From NCBI GenBank assembly GCA_048213135.1, contig PS015010.1, forward strand, positions 1,488,001 through 1,552,000: DNA of 64,000 nucleotides, in the 5' to 3' direction. Numbering within the stretch: position 1 is the stretch's first letter; every line of letters starts with the position of its first letter. The notes under the pieces are model-generated. The model saw only the letters and a list, made by a program, of their open reading frames with translations. It made no database searches and was not told where the DNA came from. Made by a program: the position numbers and the translations under genes. This document shows, in pieces, positions 3,485-17,463 of the stretch. The stretch is from Reclinomonas americana ATCC 50394 (taxonomy: Eukaryota).

Positions 3485-6250
3485 ATGAAACAAGCCCTCT
3501 ACCGTGCCTTTTTATTAATGGTTATTTCCACCTGCACTTTTGCAACAGAAACGGCCGCCCAGGTAAAATCACCGGCACTTACTCCCATTGAGCAGGCCAT
3601 ACGCAAAGAACTCAGCATCCCCGCGAATGCCACACGGGTGGTCATCTTCAGCCACGATGCGCATATGGACTGGGACTGGCTCAATCCATTCCCTTACAAC
3701 CAAAACCAGAGTGGTACATCCTTTACTTATTACTTCAGCGGAACCCGGCAACCAGCCGACAGTATTTTGTCAATGGCCACGCAGAATTTATTATCACAGC
3801 CATCTTACTATTATTCCGTCTGTGAAATGGGATTCCTGCGGGGATTCGCCAACAATAAACCTTCACTTTTCAATTCAATGAAAAGCACGGGCAGGCTGGC
3901 GGTGGTGGGCGGCGGTATTACTTCTCCTGACAACCTGCTTCCCAACGGGGAAACCTTCCTCCGTGATTATCTCGTGGCCAACCAGTGGCTCAAACGGGTG
4001 AATGTACCCTGGTCGCAGCAGGCATGGTTGCCCGATGACTTCGGTCATGATCCGCAATTACCCGTAATGCTGCAGGCCATGGATGCCATGGGTGTGGGCT
4101 TTGCCAGGATACCCGGCGCCTGTAACGGTTTGCCGCAGGCTTATACCGCCGGGCAGCAAACCCTGCTGAACAGAACGACCGGTGGTGTTGATTTCAGGTG
4201 GGCAGCCGCCGACAGCAGCGAAACCGTAGCACATTGGTTACAGTCGCATTACAACCAGGGTGCCGACATCGATGCTGGCGGTAATGATTTTACCAGCCCC
4301 GAAAGTAACCTTGCCTGCAGCAAAACATACAACTCAACGGTGATCTCCCACATACAGGCTTATATCAACACCAACGGACTTGTATCGCCCACCCCTTACA
4401 TTTTTGTTGAGGTGAGCGATGACTTCATGACACCTTACCAGCAACTGGTCAGCAATGTCAATAAATGGAATACCGATCCTGCCGGGTATCCACGTACAGG
4501 TGTGTATGCGGTGGTGGCTACATTCGATCATTATATCCGTTTAATCAACCAGTACCCCGCCCAGTTGAGATTGCGTTCGTATAATGCACTGAGGCCCGGT
4601 ACTTCCTTCCAGCCCTTTCAGCCCAACCCCTATTGGATGGGGTACTATGCCAGCAGACCTGCATTAAAAACATTACATAATGAAGCCACACGAGGTTTAC
4701 TGGCAACAGAGATCTACCAGATCATCGCCAATACACTTATGCCCCCTTCCCTTGCTGAAAAGCAATCGCAAATACAAAACCTGCTCAACGCCTGGGATAC
4801 GCTGGCGCCCAGCACCCATCACGATTATATCACCGGCACTGCCATTGATGGCGTATACCAGTATGAACAACTGCCGCTACTGAACAAAGCGCTTGCTCTT
4901 GGTAACGGAATGAGGTCGCAGTTCATGACCAGTATCGTTTCCAATCTTTCTTCCACGCAGCCCGCCGTCGCGGTTTTTAACCCGCTTGGTTTCAGCAACA
5001 GCGGCGTGATCGAATACCAGCCCAGTCCCGGAAAGAGAATGCTGCTGAATGTGACCGCTCCCTCTCTTGGATACGCCATTAATGATCTTGCCGCAGCGCA
5101 ACGCGGAGACGGAAGCCTGAAAGCAGGCAGGGATGGAAAAGGAAACATCATCTTACAAAATACCGCACTCAGCGTTTATGTAAATATGACCACAGGAAAC
5201 CTGGTTGCTGTGACAGACAGGCTAAGTAACAGGCAGGTGTTGGCCGGTAATGGAAATGGCAATGGCAATGAGATCGTTTTTTACAATGATGGTGGCGATA
5301 TTTACCGGTTTGGTTATGAAGAGGACAACTGCACATTTAACGCGATGCAGGCCAGCTGGTCAGCTCCAACGATAACCCTGGATACCGCTACTGTCCTGGA
5401 AAAATCAGTGACCATAACAAAGACGGCCAAACTGCAGGATGGCAACCAGGGCACCTTTACTATTGTTTACAGCCTCAGGCAGGGAGAACCATTCCTGCGC
5501 ATCAGCACCACGGGTGCGGCACCGGGCAGTTACTCCGTAATGGTAAAATTTCCGCTCAACAGCAGCAGTATTGACAACATACAGGCAGGTACACCCTATC
5601 ACTGGAATTCACTTACACCCCTGAAATACGGTACTTATAACGACTTCAACTCTGCCATGTGGGCTACGCATGATTTCGTGATCCCACGCAACCAGGGACA
5701 AACCTTAGCTGCCATCTATCATGCATCCACACCCGCCTGGACTTCTGCCGGTAATAATCTTTATGGTGTTATCCTGCGCAATACACCTTATGGCTGCAAT
5801 AATTATGGCGCCAATGGGAGTGATAATGGCACACATACACAGGAATATGCACTGCGCATACCTACAGGGCTTCGCGAGCCCGCCAGCGGATTTCCGCTGA
5901 AAGAGGCACGTTACTTCAATACACCTATGGAAGCCCGGGAGGTTACTGCACGGAGCGGTGGAAGATTGCCTGCTGCATTTTCGCTGGCATCTACAAGCGG
6001 CAGCGCCATGATCACAGCGGCCAAATGGAATTACGATAATCCTAATGCTTTGATACTGCGGGTTTACCAGCCGGGCAATACAAGAACGAGCAGCACCATG
6101 AACCTGGCGCCGAATTTCACCAGGAGCAGTGCCGTTTCCGCGTTGGAACTGCCGCTGGTGAATGCGAAAGTGAGGCCAGCCATTACAAAATCAGGCCTAC
6201 AATATATTTTAACCCTTCCCAGGGCTTTATCCACTTTCAAAATTGAATAA
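3485..6250 (+). CDS. secreted glycoside hydrolase family 38 (alpha-mannosidase-like)
   Basis: Signal peptide from ATG 3485; HxD metal motif (AHMDWDW), WLPDDFGH nucleophile motif, HHDYITGT, VFNPL. Confidence 0.8.
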   Translation: MKQALYRAFLLMVISTCTFATETAAQVKSPALTPIEQAIRKELSIPANATRVVIFSHDAHMDWDWLNPFPYNQNQSGTSFTYYFSGTRQPADSILSMATQNLLSQPSYYYSVCEMGFLRGFANNKPSLFNSMKSTGRLAVVGGGITSPDNLLPNGETFLRDYLVANQWLKRVNVPWSQQAWLPDDFGHDPQLPVMLQAMDAMGVGFARIPGACNGLPQAYTAGQQTLLNRTTGGVDFRWAAADSSETVAHWLQSHYNQGADIDAGGNDFTSPESNLACSKTYNSTVISHIQAYINTNGLVSPTPYIFVEVSDDFMTPYQQLVSNVNKWNTDPAGYPRTGVYAVVATFDHYIRLINQYPAQLRLRSYNALRPGTSFQPFQPNPYWMGYYASRPALKTLHNEATRGLLATEIYQIIANTLMPPSLAEKQSQIQNLLNAWDTLAPSTHHDYITGTAIDGVYQYEQLPLLNKALALGNGMRSQFMTSIVSNLSSTQPAVAVFNPLGFSNSGVIEYQPSPGKRMLLNVTAPSLGYAINDLAAAQRGDGSLKAGRDGKGNIILQNTALSVYVNMTTGNLVAVTDRLSNRQVLAGNGNGNGNEIVFYNDGGDIYRFGYEEDNCTFNAMQASWSAPTITLDTATVLEKSVTITKTAKLQDGNQGTFTIVYSLRQGEPFLRISTTGAAPGSYSVMVKFPLNSSSIDNIQAGTPYHWNSLTPLKYGTYNDFNSAMWATHDFVIPRNQGQTLAAIYHASTPAWTSAGNNLYGVILRNTPYGCNNYGANGSDNGTHTQEYALRIPTGLREPASGFPLKEARYFNTPMEAREVTARSGGRLPAAFSLASTSGSAMITAAKWNYDNPNALILRVYQPGNTRTSSTMNLAPNFTRSSAVSALELPLVNAKVRPAITKSGLQYILTLPRALSTFKIE

Positions 6251-6299
6251 ACCCGGGCACAACGTAAGTAAAATTTATCATTCAATAAATAACCACAGT

Positions 6300-7823
6300 A
6301 TGACAAACTCCGATAACAGTAAGATCGAACACGTAATCGTGATCATGTTTGAGAACAGGTCTTTTGATCACATGCTTGGCGCATTCCCCGGCGCGAACGG
6401 TGTATTGCTTCCCGGCGGCGAAGTAAACCCGGATTTTTTCAATACCATGTCACCCACCAGCCCACCCGATCCGCAAACCAATCCAATGACGTTTCCTGCC
6501 CCCATCGACCTGTCCGGGCAAAGCGGGCTAAGCCACGATTTCAACCATGATTTCGGCGATGGCATGATGCCCGATCTTTTTGGTCCGGGTTGCACGGGTT
6601 ATGTGAATGGCATACCGCTCAACGCACCCGTTACTACCTATCCCGCCACCAACAGCGGCTTTCTTTCAACCATTGATTATAATGTAAACGGATATCCGAA
6701 CAACGGACCAAGCGCGATGTATTTTTTTGAGAATGGCGCACTGAAAGTATTTCATAAGCTGGCATCCGAATTTGTGGTATGCGATAACTGGCACTGCGAC
6801 ATGCCCGGTCATACCATGCCCAACAGGGCTTTCATGCATTGTGCCACTACCGGTGATGCCGGGATAATTGACAATGACATTGGCTTCATCACTTCACCCA
6901 CCATCTTCGGCCAGATCGAAAATAACGGGCATGGCTGGAAAATGTACAGCCCCGGCGGACAGGTCGATGCCAGCTGGATACAGGAGATACAATCCAATCC
7001 CAACAGCAATGTTCCTATTGCAGACTTTTGCAATGACCTGCAGAACGGGACACTGCCTTTCTATAGTTTTATCCTGTGCTGGTGCACACCTGGCACTCCC
7101 GATGTCAGTATGCATCCCGCATCTACAGTTCAGGCCGGTGAAAATTATCTTGCCGCGGTTTACAATGCGTTACGCAACAGCCAATATTGGAAGAACACTT
7201 TGCTGGTCGTGAACTTCGATGAGAACGGAGGCATGTATGATCATGTACCGCCACCATCCGCAGTACCTCCTCTTGCGTCAGCGCCAGTATATAATGACTA
7301 TGACAGTGCAAGCGGCACCTCCTGTTCATTCGATTTTTCGTTGCTGGGTGTTCGTATCCCTGTGTTGCTCATATCGCCCTGGCTGAGCAAGGGAATAGAT
7401 TCTTCACCATACCAGAACACTTCCGTTCTCAGGTATATCCAGGATAAGATATCCGAACCCGGGCAGCCGCAACTGTATCTCACCCAACGCGATAAAAACG
7501 CGACCAGCATTGCTGCCGTATTTGAACAATTCGGCCTTGATAAGCCACGGACGGATTGCCCGGAACATATAGAAGGTTATAAGGGTATCAGCGGGGGTGA
7601 CATCTGTAACCCGCAGGCCTTTGTACCTACAGCAGAACAACTGCAGCAGCCACCTTTACCACACCTGGTCGCCATTGCAAAAGAATACCTGGGTGGTTTA
7701 CCGGGCCATCCCGATAGCGGCAAAACCATTACCCGAACCTTTGCTACCAATGCGGAATTGATCGACTACACCAATGAAAGAGCCGCGGCTTCCATTCAGT
7801 ATGCCGCAGCCAATAAAAAATGA
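6300..7823 (+). CDS. phosphoesterase / phospholipase C family protein (copy 1)
   Basis: IEHVIVIMFENRSFDHMLG, VCDNWH, GHTMPNR, FDENGGMYDHVPPP, LGVRIP..LISPW. Confidence 0.9.
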   Translation: MTNSDNSKIEHVIVIMFENRSFDHMLGAFPGANGVLLPGGEVNPDFFNTMSPTSPPDPQTNPMTFPAPIDLSGQSGLSHDFNHDFGDGMMPDLFGPGCTGYVNGIPLNAPVTTYPATNSGFLSTIDYNVNGYPNNGPSAMYFFENGALKVFHKLASEFVVCDNWHCDMPGHTMPNRAFMHCATTGDAGIIDNDIGFITSPTIFGQIENNGHGWKMYSPGGQVDASWIQEIQSNPNSNVPIADFCNDLQNGTLPFYSFILCWCTPGTPDVSMHPASTVQAGENYLAAVYNALRNSQYWKNTLLVVNFDENGGMYDHVPPPSAVPPLASAPVYNDYDSASGTSCSFDFSLLGVRIPVLLISPWLSKGIDSSPYQNTSVLRYIQDKISEPGQPQLYLTQRDKNATSIAAVFEQFGLDKPRTDCPEHIEGYKGISGGDICNPQAFVPTAEQLQQPPLPHLVAIAKEYLGGLPGHPDSGKTITRTFATNAELIDYTNERAAASIQYAAANKK

Positions 7824-7833
7824 AAACAAGATC

Positions 7834-9351
7834 ATGAAAAAACAAATTGATGGAAAGATCAAACATATCGTAGTACTTATGTTTGAGAACAGGTCCTTCG
7901 ACCATATGCTTGGCGCATTCCCCGGCGCGAACGGTGTATTGCTTCCCGGCGGCGAAGTAAACCCGGATTTTTTCAATACCATGTCACCCACTAACCCGCC
8001 CGACCCGGTATCGAATCCTCCTCTTTCTCCAACACCAATCGATCTCTCCGGCCAAAGTGGCCTGGCCCACGATTTCAACCATGATTTTGGCGATGGCATG
8101 ATGCCCGATCTTTTTGGACCAGGTTGCACAGGTTATGTGAAAGGCACACCCGTAAATGCACCCGCAGTCACCTACCCGGCAACGAACAGTGGCTTTCTGT
8201 CAACGATTGCTTATAATGTTGATAACGATCCGCCCAACGGCCCGAGCGTGATGTATTTTTTTGAGAATGATTCATTGAAAGTATTTCACCAGTTGGCGTC
8301 TGAATTTGTAGTCTGCGATAACTGGCATTGCGATCTGCCGGGCCACACCAAACCCAACAGGTGCTTCATGCATTGTGCAACCACCGGCAGTATGGGCATA
8401 GATGATGATAATGCCGGAACGGAAACCACGAAAACGATCTTTAACCAGATCGAACAAATGGGGTACGACTGGAAAATGTATACACCCGGCGGCTGGCTCG
8501 ATTCTACTTTCCTGGAAGACATCATCAACGACCCCAATGGCAATGTTCCTATCTCGCAGTTCTGTACCGATCTTCAAAACGGCCAGCTGCCCTTTTACAG
8601 TTTCCTGATGTGCGGGTTAGGCGCCTCTCCCGATACCAGTATGCATCCCGCCAACAGGGTGGAGCCCGGTGAAAATTTCCTGGCAGCCGTTTACAACGCG
8701 TTGCGCAACAGCTCCTATTGGGAAGACACACTGCTGGTGATCAATTTTGATGAGAATGGTGGCATTTATGATCATGTTATGCCACCTCAAACCGTTGCTC
8801 CCGATCCCGCACAGCCTGTTTATTACGGTACGAACAATAACAGAACCGAGTCCAGTTTTGATTTCTCGCTGCTGGGCATCAGGATACCTGCGATACTTAT
8901 TTCACCCTGGCTTTCCAAAGGCGTGGATTCTTCATTATACCAGAACACGTCCGTACTCCGGTATATACAGGACCTGATTGCTGCACCAACAGATCTTTTC
9001 CTCAGCCTCACGCAACGCGACGCGAAAGCAGCCAGCATCGCCGGGGTTTTTGATTCCTTGGGCACATCCGTCCCGCGTACGGATTGCCCTGTAAACATTG
9101 AAGGATACCCGGGTTTTGGCGGCGGAAATATCTGCGATCCCGGCGCATTTGAACCATCGGAAGAATACCTTCAACAGGCCCCACTAACCTATATGCTTTC
9201 ACTCGCGAAAGAATACATCGGAAGTTTACCGGGGCATGCCGACAGTGGAAAACCTTTCAACAAAACCTTTGCCACCAATGCGGAATTGCAGGCGTATGCA
9301 AATGAAAGGATTGAAGCAGCGAAGCAGTTTGTTTTGAAGAAGAAGAAATAA
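7834..9351 (+). CDS. phosphoesterase / phospholipase C family protein (copy 2)
   Basis: Same motifs (ENRSFDHMLG, GHTKPNR, FDENGGIYDHV); full-length paralogue of the preceding gene. Confidence 0.9.
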   Translation: MKKQIDGKIKHIVVLMFENRSFDHMLGAFPGANGVLLPGGEVNPDFFNTMSPTNPPDPVSNPPLSPTPIDLSGQSGLAHDFNHDFGDGMMPDLFGPGCTGYVKGTPVNAPAVTYPATNSGFLSTIAYNVDNDPPNGPSVMYFFENDSLKVFHQLASEFVVCDNWHCDLPGHTKPNRCFMHCATTGSMGIDDDNAGTETTKTIFNQIEQMGYDWKMYTPGGWLDSTFLEDIINDPNGNVPISQFCTDLQNGQLPFYSFLMCGLGASPDTSMHPANRVEPGENFLAAVYNALRNSSYWEDTLLVINFDENGGIYDHVMPPQTVAPDPAQPVYYGTNNNRTESSFDFSLLGIRIPAILISPWLSKGVDSSLYQNTSVLRYIQDLIAAPTDLFLSLTQRDAKAASIAGVFDSLGTSVPRTDCPVNIEGYPGFGGGNICDPGAFEPSEEYLQQAPLTYMLSLAKEYIGSLPGHADSGKPFNKTFATNAELQAYANERIEAAKQFVLKKKK

Positions 9352-10660: not shown

Positions 10661-10779
10661 ATCATATGACAGTAACCGGCCATTGGTACAAATGCTGCAA
10701 GTAATAGGGGAAAAATCCCCTTGTCTTACAGGATTATTCCCCCCGCTCTATTTAGTAGTTTTATCCAATATTCCTTTTC

Positions 10780-11370
10780 ATGAGTAACATAAAAATATTC
10801 ATCGCTTCTTCAGCAGAATTGGAGGAAGACCGTAAGGCAAGTGCTTTGCTGATCGATGAGTTAAACAAAACCTATCCCCTATTAAATCTCGAACATGTAA
10901 CATACGAGTTAGATACGCCCTCAGGAAATGCCCCAGCGCATAAAGATTTACAGGATGCCATTAATACTAAACTATACGAATCGGAGGTAGTAATATTCCT
11001 ATTCTATACAAAACTTGGAAAATATACACTACAGGAACTGGACGTAGCATTGGACCGGAAGAAAAAAGTTTTTGTCTACTTCAAAAATGGGTTTACACCC
11101 AGGAACAATGAAGAAGAAGAAAAATATAATGACCTGATAGCCCTTAGAAAGAGATTCAATGAGGAGGGTAAGATAAGATGCCAGGATTATAATGACACAA
11201 AGGAGTACTATGGCAAACTCCTTATGGACCTGCATAAATATATATCTGGAACACATAAAGCCGCGCTGGATATACCCGGAATGAAAATGGCAGTAAAAAA
11301 CGGAGGCGATGGGAATATCACTCTTATCGAGTCCAAAGTCGAAAATATAAATTCACAAATAAGAAAATAA
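10780..11370 (+). CDS. DUF4062 / TIR-like (nucleoside deoxyribosyltransferase-fold) domain protein
   Basis: IKIFIASSAELEEDR ... QDAIN..LYESEVVIFLFYTKLGKYTLQELDVA ... VFVYFK pattern; low-complexity N/G/I C-tail. Confidence 0.7.
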   Translation: MSNIKIFIASSAELEEDRKASALLIDELNKTYPLLNLEHVTYELDTPSGNAPAHKDLQDAINTKLYESEVVIFLFYTKLGKYTLQELDVALDRKKKVFVYFKNGFTPRNNEEEEKYNDLIALRKRFNEEGKIRCQDYNDTKEYYGKLLMDLHKYISGTHKAALDIPGMKMAVKNGGDGNITLIESKVENINSQIRK

Positions 11371-11380
11371 GCCAGGTAAA

Positions 11381-12362
11381 ATGCCGGAGTTAAATTCAAA
11401 TAGCATTGAAGAAAATTATAACCCCGACTTATCGGAGGAAGGTATTCCTGAAAGCAAATCTTCAGAAAAGAATGACGCTCTGGGTGATGACAAAGACGAG
11501 TTGGATAGTGAGGAAATTGAAAATTCTTCCAATGTCCAAAATTACGGAGACGGAAATATTACCGCAATCAAGTCCGAAATTGGCGGGATAATTAATAATC
11601 ATATTACAATAGGACTTGATGAAATTCTACTTAATAGCTTAAGAGCCAGGCCTGGTGACTATCCTAATGTGGATGCGGACTTCAATAGAGAATATAAAAA
11701 TACACTGGCACATATAAAGAATAAGCTGAGGGATAAAGACTTTGATAAAGCGTATGAATATTGCCAAAAGGCTGAAGATCTGGCTCCGGCGGAATCCGCT
11801 ACCTGGGAATATTTTGCCCTGACTGAATTTCTGCGTGAAATCAATAAAAAAGAAAAAAGAAAAAGAAAACCGGTACGGGAGATTGTAAGGGCTGTAAAAA
11901 AATCATCTCGAAAAAGGAAAAGACCACGGTTTAAGTGGAATAAAGTATGAAGAAATAACCAATGATATAGCAAACCAGTTGTTTAAACTTCAAAGAGCAA
12001 GGATTAACTCTATCGGTCCTTCTTCAAGAGATTCTAACGGAATTGAAATATGGGGAGGTGCTGAACTTCGGGCCTGTTTGTTTTTTTTGACTTCCTATGA
12101 ACAATGTTTCATTTTAAACCCGGAAGTAAAATTTCTTGAGGAATATGTTGCTGAACTAAGTAAGCCATATAAATGGATTGTGAGGAATTCGCAGGGAAAT
12201 TTATTAAGCAGACCAGTATTTGGTAATTTTTCCGCAGTTGAAAAAAGGGATAACCTGTTGACAAAACTGAGGTCTTTAAATTCCACTTTTCAGCCAGTTG
12301 AAATTAAAGAAGAGCGAATTACTATTCTACCAGATCTCATAAGGGTAATTTCAATCGAATAA
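11381..12362 (+). pseudogene. helical (TPR-like) protein split by a +1 frameshift in an A7 run (ORFs 11381-11950 and 11979-12362)
   Basis: Removing one A from 11896-11902 gives ...RAVKNHLEKGKDHGLSG...IANQLFKLQR, in frame with the second ORF. One TPR-like unit DFDKAYEYCQKAEDLAPAESATWEYFA. Confidence 0.7.
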
Positions 12363-12380
12363 CAATCTTAATACGACAAA

Positions 12381-13493
12381 ATGAAAGAATTACAGTTTAA
12401 ACTTCCTGGTGGCAAAACCCTGAGGGTTGAGTTAGAAGAAACGGTCTTGGTAAATGCTTTCCTCCTGAAACTGAAAGAGGATCAAATACTTGATTCAACT
12501 AAGCCATTCATACTAAGCTCGTTATCAGGCAGCATTATTTCAGAAAGCACCCCGTTTAGATTCCTGCAGGATGAAATGTACTTAATCACTGAACAAAGCC
12601 CGGATGCGATTATCGTCCAGGAAGAAGAGAGCAAGTTAAAACAACAGTTTAAAAATAAATCACCAATGGATTCAGAAATATCACCTAAATATCCCGGGAA
12701 CGTAATACAAAACACAGAGCCCAGAACCGGAGATAAAATCATAATCCCTCCTGGTAAATTAGCTGCAAAATGTGAAGATCATAATTTTGAGAAAAGACGA
12801 AATGTGGCTTTGGACAATAGTAGTGTTATGAATACCTGGATAAAGATTCCCCGCTGCAAATTTATGTCTGACGATCCTTTAGCGAAAAGAGCAAAGGAAA
12901 TAAAAAAGAAAATACAGGAAGGGAATAGCATTTCAATCAGTAAAACCGGGGAAGTGAATCCCACTCTGACTGACACCAGTAAAACCGGGAAAAATATCCA
13001 GATCCCCCCGGGAAAATTGGCCAATTTTTATTGGTATCAGCGGGATCGTGAGCTTTATGAAGCGGAAATAGAAGCAATGAATCTTTCTTTTCCTGCGTTC
13101 AAACTAAAAAAGCTTGATGATGGAAGATTGTATTGGGAAGGTGATATACAACCAAAAGTATGGGGCAATACAAGTTATCGCTTATTGATTGTATACGATA
13201 ACAATCATCCCAGTACAAGTACTTATGGTGGTTCTGTAAAATGTTACTTAGTTGACCCTTCCATCGAGGAACTGGAAGCCAAACACGGCAGAGTTCTTCC
13301 TCATATTATGAAAGACACTGCGAATAACAGGTATTTATGTACTAATTCCACTGAGATTTTTAAAGATTCTGCAACACATAGTACCTCAGCATCTACATGC
13401 CTGAGATGGGCCGTCAAGTGGCTTCTCGTTTATGAATTGTTCGATGCAAAAGAAATCTCATACACCGAATTTTCTAGTCACGATAAGTTTTAA
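12381..13493 (+). CDS. ubiquitin-like N-domain + repeated IPPGKLA linker + E2 (UBC-like) C-domain
   Basis: N-terminal ~70 aa has a beta-grasp-like pattern (LQFKLPGGKTLRVEL...). C-domain has E2 hallmarks: ELYEAEIEAM..FP, LYWEGDI, IVYDNNHP, PH-x10-LC (Cys320). Confidence 0.7.
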   Translation: MKELQFKLPGGKTLRVELEETVLVNAFLLKLKEDQILDSTKPFILSSLSGSIISESTPFRFLQDEMYLITEQSPDAIIVQEEESKLKQQFKNKSPMDSEISPKYPGNVIQNTEPRTGDKIIIPPGKLAAKCEDHNFEKRRNVALDNSSVMNTWIKIPRCKFMSDDPLAKRAKEIKKKIQEGNSISISKTGEVNPTLTDTSKTGKNIQIPPGKLANFYWYQRDRELYEAEIEAMNLSFPAFKLKKLDDGRLYWEGDIQPKVWGNTSYRLLIVYDNNHPSTSTYGGSVKCYLVDPSIEELEAKHGRVLPHIMKDTANNRYLCTNSTEIFKDSATHSTSASTCLRWAVKWLLVYELFDAKEISYTEFSSHDKF

Positions 13494-13498
13494 TCCAT

Positions 13499-14461
13499 AT
13501 GCATGAAAGCAATAAAATAGTTTTTTCTAACAGAGCCTTTAACTCAATTGTATGTGAGACTTACGATAGAATCGCTACAGAAACAGGCGGAATATTGCTG
13601 GGAAGCACTATTGACGGCATTTGGTACGTAGTGGAAGTAATAGATCCCGGCCCTGGCTCGATCTTCACGATTTCTTATTTTGAATACGATACGGCTTATG
13701 TTAATCATCTTGCAAAAGTAATTTCGAAACAATACGAGATTGAACTCGCAGTTTTAGGTTTATGGCACAGGCATCCAGGATGCATGGATACTTTTTCCCT
13801 GACTGATAATATTACAAATACCGAATTTTCAAAACTGCTCCCAAAAGGGGCATTGTCAGGATTGGTAAATATTGATCCTCTACTACGCCTGACTATGTAC
13901 CATGTTTCTTTTCCGTTAAAATATACAAAACTACCTTTTGAAATTGGAGACCACCTGTTTCCTTCCGGCTTATTGAAATACACTCATTCATTTTCGCAAA
14001 AGAGCAGTTATAGCGGGATGCCCCAACCGGCCTATGAAGCAACATTAATTATTGAGAAACCAAACCCGGTGAGATCCATATTTAATAAATTCGTCTACCC
14101 CATTTTTAGAAAATTCAAAACTACTGGTGTCCGTGACAGCTATTCTCCAAACATTAGCAATGCTCCTGGAATGAAAGAGAAGGACGAAGATCATTTGATT
14201 GACTTATATGCGTATGAAGAATTGCAATTGGAAAGCAACTTTAAAGCAAAGTATGAAAGCGAGGTAAAAGACAATAAGATTATTTATAAGATAAATGAGT
14301 TGGGTGATGGCCTGAACCCTGAATTACCCATTTTCTTCACTGTCAACTTAGACCCTGCTAATCCAATTTTTCAATGTACAGATATAGACTATAAGTTCAG
14401 CCCAGGAATATTTACAAGGTATGTTGACAGTAAAATAGAAAATAAACAATTCAAAGGTTAA
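13499..14461 (+). CDS. prokaryotic JAB/MPN+ metallo-isopeptidase with C-terminal extension
   Basis: ETGGILLG, VIDPGP, GLWHRHP-x5-S-x2-D complete JAMM motif. Confidence 0.9.
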   Translation: MHESNKIVFSNRAFNSIVCETYDRIATETGGILLGSTIDGIWYVVEVIDPGPGSIFTISYFEYDTAYVNHLAKVISKQYEIELAVLGLWHRHPGCMDTFSLTDNITNTEFSKLLPKGALSGLVNIDPLLRLTMYHVSFPLKYTKLPFEIGDHLFPSGLLKYTHSFSQKSSYSGMPQPAYEATLIIEKPNPVRSIFNKFVYPIFRKFKTTGVRDSYSPNISNAPGMKEKDEDHLIDLYAYEELQLESNFKAKYESEVKDNKIIYKINELGDGLNPELPIFFTVNLDPANPIFQCTDIDYKFSPGIFTRYVDSKIENKQFKG

Positions 14462-14471
14462 TTCTGCAAAG

Positions 14472-15707
14472 ATGAATCCACTAAAGCCAGTTAACGAACA
14501 TGCACCCCGCGTTTTTTTTCCGGAATTCCTTTTGGAAAGTGACTACTGTGGTAGCATCTTGGGATACTATCATGCAAACACATCCGTATTTAATATTATT
14601 TGCACAGACGAAGTAATAAATACAGCGCTCGCAGGCGCCAATGCGATAGGGCAAATAATAAACATTGACGAAAATGGAGTTTTTTTTAAACCCACTCGAA
14701 ATATTGAGTATGCCGGCCAAGAGAAAGAAGTAGTGCACTTTGTTGAAAAACCAAGTCTGGGTCAAACGCAAATTCTCGGGATCAGAAAAGGAAAAAATAT
14801 AGACTTTTTCACAAGTAAAGGCGTTAAATGCGAATCTGAACCTTATTCGTTGATTAACGACGTGTTTTCCAGGAATACTAATATACTGGAGACGAGTTTA
14901 ATGTTAGAGAAAACGGTTATCATTTCAGGTTGTGGCTCTGTTGGAAGTTTGGTTGCTTTGGAACTTGCAAGAGCGGGTGTTGGAAAATTCTTGTTAGTAG
15001 ACTATGACCTAGTATCCTATCACAATATTTGTCGTCATCAATGCAGTATTACTGATGTTGGCAAATATAAAATTGATGCGATTGAAGAAAGAATATTACA
15101 AATTAATCCAACTGCGCAAATTGGAAAGTCATACAGCATCATTGAAGAAGTTCCTGAAAAAACATTTCTGGAGTTCTGCAGCAAAAATTCCATTATTATT
15201 GGATGTGCTGACAACAGAGAAGGAGATCTGTATGCGAATTTCATTTCTAAGCTTTACAAGATTCCTTTCTTATCGATCGGTTTTTGGGAAAGGGCGTTTG
15301 CTGGCGAAATATTTTACACGCTTCCAAATGGCATGCCATGCTACAAATGCTTTTATGAAGAAATTGGTGTAGTTATAGAAAGGCCTGCCAATAGGAAATA
15401 CTATACTAATGAAAAACATTTAGAAAAACTGAATTTTGAACCTGGGATTTCGGTTGATATAAATTTTGTAACAACGATTGCTATCAAGCTCGCAATAGAT
15501 ATCCTCAATATTGGCAATGAAAGTTATATTCCAAAAGTGATCGACCACCTTGATCAGTTTACCCTGGTATGCAATACCATTGATGAAAGAATTGGAGGAG
15601 AACAATCTGAATACTTTTCATACCCGCTACAGGTAAGAAAAGGGATTGACATAATCTATTGCTCAAAATGTTTAGAAAAAGAATTTTGCGTTCTGGTAAC
15701 CGAATAA
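14472..15707 (+). CDS. ThiF/E1-family adenylyltransferase
   Basis: GCGSVGS, LARAGVG, VDYDLVSYHNICRH, GKYK, GCADN, zinc pairs CYKC and CSKC. Confidence 0.92.
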   Translation: MNPLKPVNEHAPRVFFPEFLLESDYCGSILGYYHANTSVFNIICTDEVINTALAGANAIGQIINIDENGVFFKPTRNIEYAGQEKEVVHFVEKPSLGQTQILGIRKGKNIDFFTSKGVKCESEPYSLINDVFSRNTNILETSLMLEKTVIISGCGSVGSLVALELARAGVGKFLLVDYDLVSYHNICRHQCSITDVGKYKIDAIEERILQINPTAQIGKSYSIIEEVPEKTFLEFCSKNSIIIGCADNREGDLYANFISKLYKIPFLSIGFWERAFAGEIFYTLPNGMPCYKCFYEEIGVVIERPANRKYYTNEKHLEKLNFEPGISVDINFVTTIAIKLAIDILNIGNESYIPKVIDHLDQFTLVCNTIDERIGGEQSEYFSYPLQVRKGIDIIYCSKCLEKEFCVLVTE

Positions 15708-15718
15708 CTTTTCTAGAA

Positions 15719-17170
15719 ATGTCATTCCGCATAGATATAAATGGTGAAATAATCAGGGATAATCAAAATCAAGCTACTGCCCCTAACCCCGGTCCCGAGG
15801 AACGACATTTCAACTTTTTGTGGATAGCGCTGGTATTAATTGTCGTTTTTATTGGATACAAGGTAATATCAAATTTAATTGGAAAGAATGACTATCGCAA
15901 TTCCCGGCAAACTACTTCAACCCAAAGCCCTGGTAATTCTCCATACTTGCAACCATCAACAAGCAATTCCACTTTTTCATCCTCTGCCGAAAATCAAAAT
16001 GGAGTTGAGGATCATAAAGTAATAATTTTAAATGGCAAATGGGTCCAGATTGAGGAAGCAAACCATGGCACCCGTAACATTGGTTTAGCCATTTTATTCC
16101 AGGAAAATATTGGAACAGTTATTTATGTCCCCAATTCCTCATCCCCTTACCATGCAGGCCAGGTAATATGGAAAGATTTTGACCCTGAAAGGCAGTGGAT
16201 CAAGCAATACATTACCACTTCTGACAATTACCTGAACATTGAAATCAAGTTCAAAGATTCTAACACTATCGATTTATATGGGAATATCTTTCGAAGACAG
16301 CCTTCTCCCGAAAGCGAAACTACGCAAGCTGTTACCCCTTACCCGGATAAGGAAAAAATTGAGGCCGATCTGTTAGGAAAAAAAATGACAAACTGGAATT
16401 TTGACTACCTCCAAGAATTCCAGGACTTTAATATTCTGCACGAAGAAATAAGCGATGGTTACCTGTACCAGACGATAGAACTTAAGTTGGTAGATTTAAA
16501 TACCAGTAACAATTATAATTCTGAAATCGTAGTAACATACTTAAACGCGAATAATGGGTGGGAATTTGTTAGTGTTAAGCAAAATTCATATTCCCAAATT
16601 CCAGCATCAACTCCTCCGGTAGAAAATGGTACAAATCAGGATAATGCCCCTGTTTCGGTAACTCCCTCCGCGCCCGAAAGAAGTAGTTCAAACAAGGATA
16701 AGAGTTCTGTTCCGTCAACTTCTAATAATTTCTCGGGTCACTATTCAGGAATAATATTTAATAAAGGCTATACGAATATTGGCGACTATATTTATTACAG
16801 AACAAATAATTGTAGCGTGGATGACGTGTTTTTTATGGACAGGAATGACAATAAAGTTTCCGGCAATATTGTAAATGAGGGGCAGCCCATATATTTATCA
16901 ATGACCCTGGGTAAATTTACAAAAAGAAGCGAAAAATTCCGTTATTCCATATCCAGCTATATGGAAGATGAGGAGGGTACCGTTTATGCCAAATCAGAAA
17001 ACGTAGTTTCTGAATCTTCTACACCTTATTTGGGTATCGCAATTGGAGGAGGCTTACGCAGGCTACCTGTAAACACAAGAAGTTTGAATATATATATAAG
17101 TTTTAGAATCGATGATAAATTCTCTGATGCTAAATTAGAAGGTTTTTATAAAATAGTTGTGGTGCGTTAA
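15719..17170 (+). CDS. single-pass membrane protein with several extracytoplasmic domains
   Basis: ATG 11 nt after the E1 stop; TM FLWIALVLIVVFIGYKVI; Ser/Thr/Pro linkers separating three beta-rich segments. Confidence 0.75.
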   Translation: MSFRIDINGEIIRDNQNQATAPNPGPEERHFNFLWIALVLIVVFIGYKVISNLIGKNDYRNSRQTTSTQSPGNSPYLQPSTSNSTFSSSAENQNGVEDHKVIILNGKWVQIEEANHGTRNIGLAILFQENIGTVIYVPNSSSPYHAGQVIWKDFDPERQWIKQYITTSDNYLNIEIKFKDSNTIDLYGNIFRRQPSPESETTQAVTPYPDKEKIEADLLGKKMTNWNFDYLQEFQDFNILHEEISDGYLYQTIELKLVDLNTSNNYNSEIVVTYLNANNGWEFVSVKQNSYSQIPASTPPVENGTNQDNAPVSVTPSAPERSSSNKDKSSVPSTSNNFSGHYSGIIFNKGYTNIGDYIYYRTNNCSVDDVFFMDRNDNKVSGNIVNEGQPIYLSMTLGKFTKRSEKFRYSISSYMEDEEGTVYAKSENVVSESSTPYLGIAIGGGLRRLPVNTRSLNIYISFRIDDKFSDAKLEGFYKIVVVR

Positions 17171-17189
17171 AAACGCCCTCTACATTAAC

Positions 17190-17349
17190 ACCATAATCTT
17201 CCTTATATTTTAAAACCCGGGAAGTATCGGCAGAAGTAAATTTGGAATGACCAATATTATGCTCATACAAACGCCGGTCAAGACCAGTACAGGCACCAAC
17301 AATAGTATTTCCCGAGCTTTTCTGAATAAATAATGTAAACAAAGGGCAT
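17190..17349 (-). pseudogene. GIY-YIG nuclease pseudogene
   Basis: MPFVYIIYSEKLGKYY [extra T] VGACTGLDRRLYEHNIGHSKFT...VLKYKEDY; frameshifted and lacking the C-terminal E...K helix. Confidence 0.8.
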
Positions 17350-17390
17350 GAAAATGAAAAACGCCTCTGGAATATTCAGAGGCGTTTTCG

Positions 17391-17463
17391 TGATCCCGCT
17401 GGGACTCGAACCCAGGGCCCATACATTAAAAGTGTATTGCTCTACCAACTGAGCTACGGAATC
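17391..17463 (-). tRNA. tRNA-Lys(TTT)
   Basis: Cloverleaf gattccg/cgggatc, D arm gctc..gagc, anticodon arm ataca-cttttaa-tgtat, T loop ttcgagt. Confidence 0.97.

Follow-up and report, generated by a model that had tools for sequence, protein, structure and literature searches.

Two neighbouring genes beside ubiquitin-like conjugation genes share a short motif: a probable coupling element between a TIR/deoxyribosyltransferase-like effector and its partner, possibly of the amyloid-signalling type

Why do two adjacent genes in front of a set of ubiquitin-like conjugation genes carry the same short motif, one at the end of its protein and the other near the beginning? The question is raised by contig PS015010.1 (assembly GCA_048213135.1, deposited as Reclinomonas americana ATCC 50394), in a stretch of 64,000 nucleotides (positions 1,488,001 to 1,552,000, forward strand) that we call the window and in whose coordinates all positions are given. 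The first gene of the pair encodes a small protein with a TIR/deoxyribosyltransferase-like domain, the putative effector, and the second encodes its partner. Amyloid-type immune signalling from sensor to effector is established in fungi. In this study, we observed that the motif is shared by both proteins, conserved, and beyond chance expectation, that relatives join the effector and partner domains in one chain whose linker holds a similar motif, and that the paired-motif design is repeated at sister loci, including loci with NACHT partners. We consider it very probable that the two motifs have been selected as an element coupling the effector to its partner. With less assurance, we favour the reading that they act as a like-with-like stacking tag similar to the bacterial amyloid signalling sequences (BASS). 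Layout, composition and family context speak most strongly for a stacking-type mechanism, for which we infer an amyloid or beta structure of the motif.

The effector gene (10780..11370, plus strand) encodes 196 residues, with the enzyme-like domain in residues 1-160 and a flexible tail in residues 161-196. The partner gene (11381..12362, plus strand) follows after an intergenic gap of 10 nt (11371..11380). Copy A of the motif makes up the C-terminal 25 residues of the effector, VKNGGDGNITLIESKVENINSQIRK (11293..11367, plus strand), and copy B partner residues 52-78, VQNYGDGNITAIKSEIGGIINNHITIG (11534..11614, plus strand). The top local alignment pairs the C-terminal VKNGGDGNITLIESKVENI of the effector with partner residues 52-70, VQNYGDGNITAIKSEIGGI, at a BLOSUM62 score of 55, with 10 of 16 residues identical, or 11 of 20 when extended. 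A preliminary description of this DNA had given the same count of 10 in 16 and had placed the pair at 11293-11614, between an effector C-terminus and the N-terminal region of the next protein. The count is correct and the coordinates are exact (from the first base of V172 of the effector to the last base of G78 in the open reading frame (ORF) 11381-11950), and the layout in closely spaced collinear genes was borne out. The description went wrong in assigning copy B to low-complexity sequence: the acidic low-complexity stretch comprises partner residues 1-50 (11381..11530, plus strand), and the motif comes after it.

One explanation is that the likeness has no present function and is a chance match, or the leftover of a gene split or duplication. 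This view can point to the low complexity of the partner, as the score of 55 was reached in 13 of 2,000 shuffles of that sequence. It is contradicted by the comparison within the window, where, when the tails and heads of 40 ORFs are compared in 1,560 combinations (mean 20.7, sd 4.0), a score of 55 is attained just once, by effector and partner, and where the runner-up tail-to-head score among 30 adjacent same-strand ORF pairs is 28. A six-frame search of the window with two motif patterns gave matches at these two places only. At the DNA level, the copies agree in 4 of 20 codons and in 36 of 60 bases, and the other identical residues use different synonymous codons in 6 of 7 cases. Thus, the likeness is kept at the protein level and does not reflect a DNA repeat, which also speaks against a leftover. 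Further, the motif is better conserved than its surroundings and recurs in relatives, as described below. The explanation without function is therefore close to refuted.

Conservation could be followed in P0003 (326 aa, 71% identical), the sole close relative of the partner in a large protein collection, which covers both ORFs into which the window partner is divided (11381-11950, 189 aa; 11979-12362, 127 aa). The motif region (residues 51-84) is identical in 29 of 34 positions (85%) and the helical domain in 70 of 88 (80%), as opposed to 25 of 50 (50%) in the neighbouring acidic stretch. From the N-terminus, the partner has the acidic stretch followed by the motif, then a TPR-like domain of helices and lastly a C-terminal domain. 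The TPR-like signals are weak, as are the fold matches of the partner domain, which are TPR/IFIT-like. No Pfam family was found in P0003 at E ≤ 0.01, and neither P0003 nor the window ORFs showed an NTPase family, in line with the non-NTPase partner proposed in the preliminary description. That description had taken the ORF beginning at 11381 as the partner; this ORF does carry the motif, and the match to P0003 identifies it as merely the front part of a longer gene. Relative to P0003, the frame of the partner shifts at a run of seven adenines (11896-11902, plus strand), and from about 11898 to 12362 the second part runs in a different frame, because of which the partner appears as two ORFs. 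The frame change may be a sequencing error, a real break or a site of slippage. In the public sequencing run that was found, the single contig on this stretch corresponds to 12096-12319, outside the adenine run; no RNA dataset was listed.

The composition of the motif resembles that of amyloid signalling motifs. Over ten motif copies (273 residues; N 17%, I 20%, G 10%), Asn is enriched 4.2-fold, Ile 3.3-fold, Gly 1.4-fold and Gln 1.3-fold against assumed background amino-acid frequencies, on which basis Leu (0.23-fold), Pro (0.23-fold) and Lys (0.5-fold) are depleted and Val is not enriched (0.96-fold). A GG pair is located in the middle of the partner copy. BASS motifs are described as about 25 residues long, rich in Q, N, G, V and I, poor in K, P and L, and sometimes pseudorepeated; the gene pairs are mostly collinear and at most 10 bp apart, and TIR2 is listed among the alternative effectors (10.1101/2020.01.06.895854). 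As far as that description goes, the window pair shares with BASS pairs a motif of about 25 residues on the effector C-terminus and in the N-region of the adjacent protein, a very short gap, an N/G/I-rich and L/P/K-poor composition and the existence of "all-in-one" fused relatives. It differs in a partner without NB-ARC or NACHT, in a motif that starts at residue 52 after an acidic stretch and is kept in fused relatives, and in a genome of Bacteroidota type instead of the Actinobacteria or Cyanobacteria of the published pairs. The window motif is likened to BASS by layout and composition, and not by membership of the published sequence classes BASS1-10. The window motif or those of the sister loci may already belong to a named BASS family.

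Relatives of the partner show where the motif sits when the gene organization changes. A search with the partner domain found eight family proteins. A comparable acidic opening stretch is present in the stand-alone partners P0154, P0155, P0157 and P0160, and in P0157 and P0160 the motif follows it. The likeness of the window partner motif to these two proteins was reached in 0 of 1,000 and 18 of 1,000 shuffles, respectively, and that of the window effector tail to their N-terminal motifs in 1 of 1,000 and 0 of 1,000. Together with P0003, this makes three clear partner-side copies beyond the window. In four of the eight proteins (P0156, P0158, P0159 and the 514-aa protein L067:7713-9257 of genome G003; fused-form match 45% identity, E 8e-58) Pfam TIR_2 is fused ahead of the partner domain. 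The linker after TIR_2 in P0156 resembles the window effector tail (score 49, 1 of 1,000 shuffles), as do those of P0158 and P0159 (14 of 1,000 and 15 of 1,000), while the G003 linker gave a non-significant result against the same tail (129 of 1,000). Effector and partner domains thus form one chain in relatives and two in the window, and the motif marks the seam. This series of fused and split forms provides natural controls for distinguishing a glue from a switch.

Such fusions bring in a second explanation, in which the motifs are a finite docking tag that forms a small closed interface, either as a beta-sheet common to both or as a short zipper of helices, and so keeps the halves of a split protein joined, with fixed stoichiometry and without open-ended stacking or templating. 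Both the union of the same domains in one polypeptide in these four proteins and the retention of the motif there would suit such an interface. Folded modules with homotypic binding, called effector-associated domains (EADs), are moreover described to couple effectors in related systems of ubiquitin-like protein (Ubl)-E2, JAB and E1 (PMC7159879). On the other hand, the N/I/G-rich composition, including the central GG pair of the partner copy, disfavours helices, and the same effector family pairs its motifs with NACHT partners, as in amyloid signalling. We regard docking through a closed interface, the main rival of stacking, as possible but doubtful.

The pairing with NACHT proteins was seen in a sister branch within the effector family, represented by P0002 (41% identical), for which 33 metagenome loci were analysed. 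Fourteen of these (12 non-redundant) encode a separate TIR-like protein and a neighbour with a common motif, which sits after the TIR-like domain of the former. Two motif classes were distinguished. The AE.Q.AEKI.NIG-type occurs at L035, L036, L037, L043 and L049, and a glycine-rich type at L044, L045 (= L046), L048, L051 (close to L052), L054, L057 and L059. In the glycine-rich class (L044, L045, L048, L051, L054, L057, L059) the TIR-like proteins are 229-442 aa long with the motif GSGAIAQG... TGTQI, and the partners scanned (L044, L048, L057) are NACHT + FGE-sulfatase proteins, which is the canonical layout of NOD-like receptor (NLR) loci. An additional segment with many small residues was noticed C-terminal to the motif in the TIR-like proteins of this class. 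The L037 partner, of no known family, has an nSTAND1 NTPase gene behind it. Long fused forms with internal motifs are encoded at seven loci (L033 = L034, L038, L039, L040, L041, L056), and in two of them one chain carries two copies (AEKI.NIG... twice in L038 557-2218, KIYNI..I..A.F twice in L056 2214-3680). Split relatives such as L049 have one copy per protein. The long forms L042, L047, L050 and L061 are without such a motif linker, and no motif was found at L055. L053 and L060 are cut off by their contig ends, L062-L065 are fragmentary or without a usable ORF, and L058 is ambiguous.

The preliminary description had named the sharing of the motif in homologous gene pairs as the observation on which its proposal could fail. 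At the family level the outcome is favourable, with the 12 non-redundant sister loci, and the motif class changes jointly on the effector and partner sides. In an 11 x 11 matrix of tails against partners (the window and ten sister pairs, with the duplicates L046 and L052 left out and L054 and L057 examined apart), cognate scores were 54-90 and between-class scores 18-45. By these scores, co-variation is clear between motif classes and weak within them. For comparison, BASS were defined by Dyrka et al. as motifs in five or more non-redundant pairs of genes (10.1101/2020.01.06.895854).

Several observations weigh against a stacking tag. Within a motif class, the cognate partner tops its row of the matrix for 3 of 11 pairs only, and just one two-gene pair of the exact motif class, that of the window, was seen from both sides. 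The motif is absent from P0154, and the likeness in P0155 is weak and non-significant. The partner motif starts at residue 52, away from the extreme N-terminus. Pfam amyloid-motif families gave no match to either motif peptide at E ≤ 10. In the AlphaFold2 (AF2) model of the effector, a helix is drawn over tail residues 179-195 at a predicted local distance difference test (pLDDT) of 50-73, and the 3-4-3-4 hydrophobic spacing in ITLIESKVENINSQI, as read from the sequence, is heptad-like and also compatible with a helix; both would suit the short helical zipper of a closed docking interface. In the AF2 model of the fused P0156, the partner domain has a pLDDT of 78-94, whereas the motif-bearing stretch (about 166-194) has block means of 26-54 and residues 183-227 lie below 50. 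Fused relatives retain the motif although joining needs no tag; this retention is more readily understood for an assembly element than for a simple relay from receptor to effector. The reciprocal charge swap (IESKV against IKSEI) that the preliminary description had brought forward for hetero-stacking is not a conserved feature, because IKSEI of the window corresponds to INSEI in P0003. In the HET-s fold, complementary charges face each other between layers, which makes the charge argument a reasonable one. Finally, the system may be inactive in the window since the partner gene is frameshifted. A complex prediction with three copies of each motif segment gave a score of 0.02, without controls, and speaks neither for nor against binding.

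A third explanation arises from the genes downstream. Pfam, PADLOC and NCBIfam scans of the window found E1, E2 and JAB genes together, and the pair lies directly in front of them, in agreement with the ubiquitin-like operon of the preliminary description. The effector tail could be a handle that is processed by JAB and conjugated by E1/E2, or both motifs could be JAB recognition sites. In type II CBASS, the tails of CD-NTases are processed and conjugated. This possibility was considered because TIR proteins with conjugation tails are described beside Cap2/Cap3 in Thoeris operons (10.64898/2025.12.03.692087). According to that description, both there and in the window a TIR-type protein with a C-terminal tail is encoded next to E1/E2/JAB-type genes; the tail of the Thoeris proteins is a conjugation handle, whereas that of the window is duplicated in the neighbour and has no terminal glycine. 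The flexibility of the tail and the GG pair in it would be in favour of a handle. However, GG is not conserved across the motif family and is missing in P0157 and P0160, and a second copy in the neighbour would be superfluous for conjugation. The motif also seems to persist in G003, where a vWA protein, a PP2C phosphatase and a kinase replace E1/E2/JAB, and no E1, E2 or JAB genes were noticed among the ORFs of the paired-motif sister loci, at which Pfam was run on seven proteins and neighbouring genes were viewed without systematic annotation. As the motif is duplicated in the neighbour, lacks a terminal glycine and occurs without ubiquitin-like enzymes, a ubiquitin-like handle is less likely, and we consider it very improbable.

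The effector had been called TIR-like in the preliminary description. The AF2 model has a pLDDT above 90 over residues 1-160. In structural comparison (VIA-align), the best match was DNPH1 (Z 14.3, rmsd 2.8, 135 aligned residues), followed by MilB (Z 12.7), the SPARTA TIR domain (Z 12.5, rmsd 3.1, 128 aligned), RRS1 (Z 12.4) and AbTir (Z 12.0). Foldseek returned TIR domains mixed with azoreductases, a profile of 31 effector relatives found no relative and no TIR among solved structures by sequence, and Pfam TIR_2 reached 15.8 bits against a cut-off of 28 (E 0.02). The label is therefore fair for the fold alone, with Z values of 12.0-12.5 to TIR domains; TIR_2 is below its cut-off, and DNPH1 scores a little higher in Z. 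The fold is indistinguishable between TIR and DNPH1/deoxyribosyltransferase, and a deoxyribosyltransferase-like nucleotide N-glycosidase is as possible as a TIR enzyme. All 31 aligned relatives have T83 and E86, and E86 may be the counterpart of the catalytic glutamate of TIR or DNPH1. PADLOC matched the effector to the N-terminus of the candidate system PDC-S60 (3.7e-11), and one family member, L027, touches DUF4062 below the cut-off. The family is large, with 815 matches at E ≤ 0.001 in a representative library. Most of the 150 matches listed have several hundred to more than 1,000 residues with the domain near the N-terminus, and in 18 long members it precedes P-loop, coiled-coil/TPR-like or FGE-sulfatase-like regions; this N-terminal placement is the usual position of an effector domain. 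A close homologue is cut off after its first 18 residues at a contig end of genome G001 (L032), and the queries used found no further effector or partner piece in that genome.

The stacking reading would operate as follows. The partner, with its acidic stretch, motif, TPR-like helical domain and C-terminal domain, would be a sensor or scaffold, and the small TIR/deoxyribosyltransferase-like enzyme would be the effector. Assembly of the partner would allow its motif to adopt a beta-strand-turn-strand form, on which the effector tail could stack. The enzyme domains would thereby be clustered and switched on, with a putative N-glycosidase activity on NAD+ or a nucleotide. Control might be exerted by the downstream E2/JAB/E1 proteins acting on the partner, and in a relative by the vWA/PP2C/kinase set instead. 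In this scheme we infer which way the signal runs, what the effector enzyme does and how the ubiquitin-like enzymes take part. It is tempting to speculate further that the motif belongs to an undescribed amyloid-signalling family in which prion-like templating is under the control of ubiquitin-like chemistry. Behind the acidic N-terminal stretch, the motif of the TPR-like partner would then be silent; modification or trimming by E2/JAB/E1, or phosphorylation through the vWA/PP2C/kinase set in relatives, would release it; and the released motif would nucleate a stack in which the TIR/deoxyribosyltransferase-like N-glycosidase is clustered and fired. We consider this full scenario rather unlikely. 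If true, it would be a bacterial parallel to RHIM-based necroptosis signalling, which is under ubiquitin control.

Bacterial amyloid signalling, as covered by the work cited here, mostly involves Bell-domain effectors with NLR partners, plus one Escherichia coli system. The latter, Bab/Agp, is an anti-phage pair with amyloid signalling through the motif BASS11, which also occurs with TIR; its partner is described as TPR-GreA/B-C-PIN, and no NLR domain is named in that description (10.1101/2024.11.07.622273). By this account, Bab/Agp and the window pair have in common two genes, a shared motif and a partner without an NLR-type NTPase. They differ in that the Bab/Agp effector is a small membrane-targeting helical domain and that of the window a predicted enzyme, and in that the system described has PIN and GreA/B-C in its partner and no ubiquitin-like genes. 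The window pair thus departs from the textbook arrangement by an internal motif after an acidic stretch, the lack of an NTPase, a motif kept in fused forms and the adjacent ubiquitin-like genes. It would extend the same logic to an effector that is an enzyme, from a large and poorly described family placed mostly in front of STAND NTPases, and would add an NTPase-free partner and a direct genomic link to ubiquitin-like conjugation enzymes, which are exchanged for a vWA/phosphatase/kinase set in a relative.

In the operons described by Kaur et al., which combine a Ubl-E2 fusion with JAB and E1, adaptor domains held in common, the EADs, serve to couple the effectors (PMC7159879). In keeping with that description, the window has a protein with an N-terminal domain and E2, separate JAB and E1 proteins, and an effector that would be coupled through a module found on two proteins. 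The EADs are folded domains, whereas the window module is a strand-prone tag of about 25 residues, and there is no vWA-MoxR, FtsH or RING gene in the window. The published Bil operons likewise have separate E2, JAB-type peptidase and E1 genes (10.1101/2023.09.04.556158; 10.1101/2023.09.26.559546). In contrast to their description, no separate Ubl was seen among the window ORFs, including a small one ending in glycine, two extra genes, effector and partner, lie upstream, and the reported phage tail fibre target has no counterpart in the window.

The pair belongs to a same-strand gene run (10780-17170) of effector, partner (as two ORFs), E2, JAB, E1 and a 503-aa protein, and the order E2, JAB, E1 is what we take to be that of Bil operons. 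The E2-like protein (12381..13493, plus strand, 370 aa) matches PADLOC E2 in residues 227-357 (9.4e-16). Its N-terminal residues 3-60 match the vWA protein L067:9269-10174 of G003 (E 7e-07). In the linker between its N-terminal domain and the E2 core, a short motif was noticed twice, GDKIIIPPGKLAAK and GKNIQIPPGKLANF (about 12729-12770 and 12987-13028). The JAB/JAMM peptidase (13499..14461, plus strand, 320 aa) was recognized by Pfam Prok-JAB (9e-06; 26 bits, cut-off 25) and PADLOC JAB (2.9e-09), and an HxH...S..D pattern is visible in its translation. The E1-like ThiF-family adenylyltransferase (14472..15707, plus strand, 411 aa) matches Pfam ThiF (7.1e-28) and PADLOC E1-E2 (9.3e-26). The last gene (15659..17170, plus strand) encodes the 503-aa protein with one hydrophobic helix, for which Pfam, PADLOC and NCBIfam gave no match.

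The partner domain travels with two different downstream enzyme sets, as the G003 fusion is followed by genes for a vWA protein, a PP2C phosphatase, a protein kinase and a DUF4407 protein. Upstream of the TIR_2-motif-partner fusion, the same island (L067, G003:C148, 6323-14130) also encodes a caspase and a ThsB-type TIR protein. Among sampled genomes, the partner family was found in 2 of 401 at the family level, 1 of 401 at the order level and 1 of 401 at the phylum level, and in the latter two samples the sole genome is G003 itself. The second family-level genome, G139, has a distant relative without TIR and without motif. This 294-aa protein (L070, G139:C4, 7427-8311) carries a zinc ribbon at its N-terminus and a membrane helix at its C-terminus and lies in an unrelated neighbourhood. 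No partner relatives were found in the genome, metagenome and viral contig collections. In searches for the motif by itself, a regular expression matched one of 153 proteins, an unrelated one, and tblastn of the motif peptides against phage and plasmid records gave nothing meaningful. The degenerate DNA pattern for GDGNIT.I.S occurred in 12 stretches of viral contigs, none of them related (7 in open frames of unrelated proteins, 5 near stop codons).

The G+C content is 36-38% over the block (11-17 kb), compared with 47-50% in both flanks, and a tRNA-Lys gene (17390..17463, minus strand) marks its edge. The low G+C content and the adjoining tRNA gene suggest an acquired island. The block comprises six genes, spans about 10700-17200 and abuts the tRNA-Lys gene. 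Just upstream of the island, two tandem and closely similar genes (6243-7823, 526 aa; 7774-9351, 525 aa) encode proteins that appear phosphoesterase-like from their sequence.

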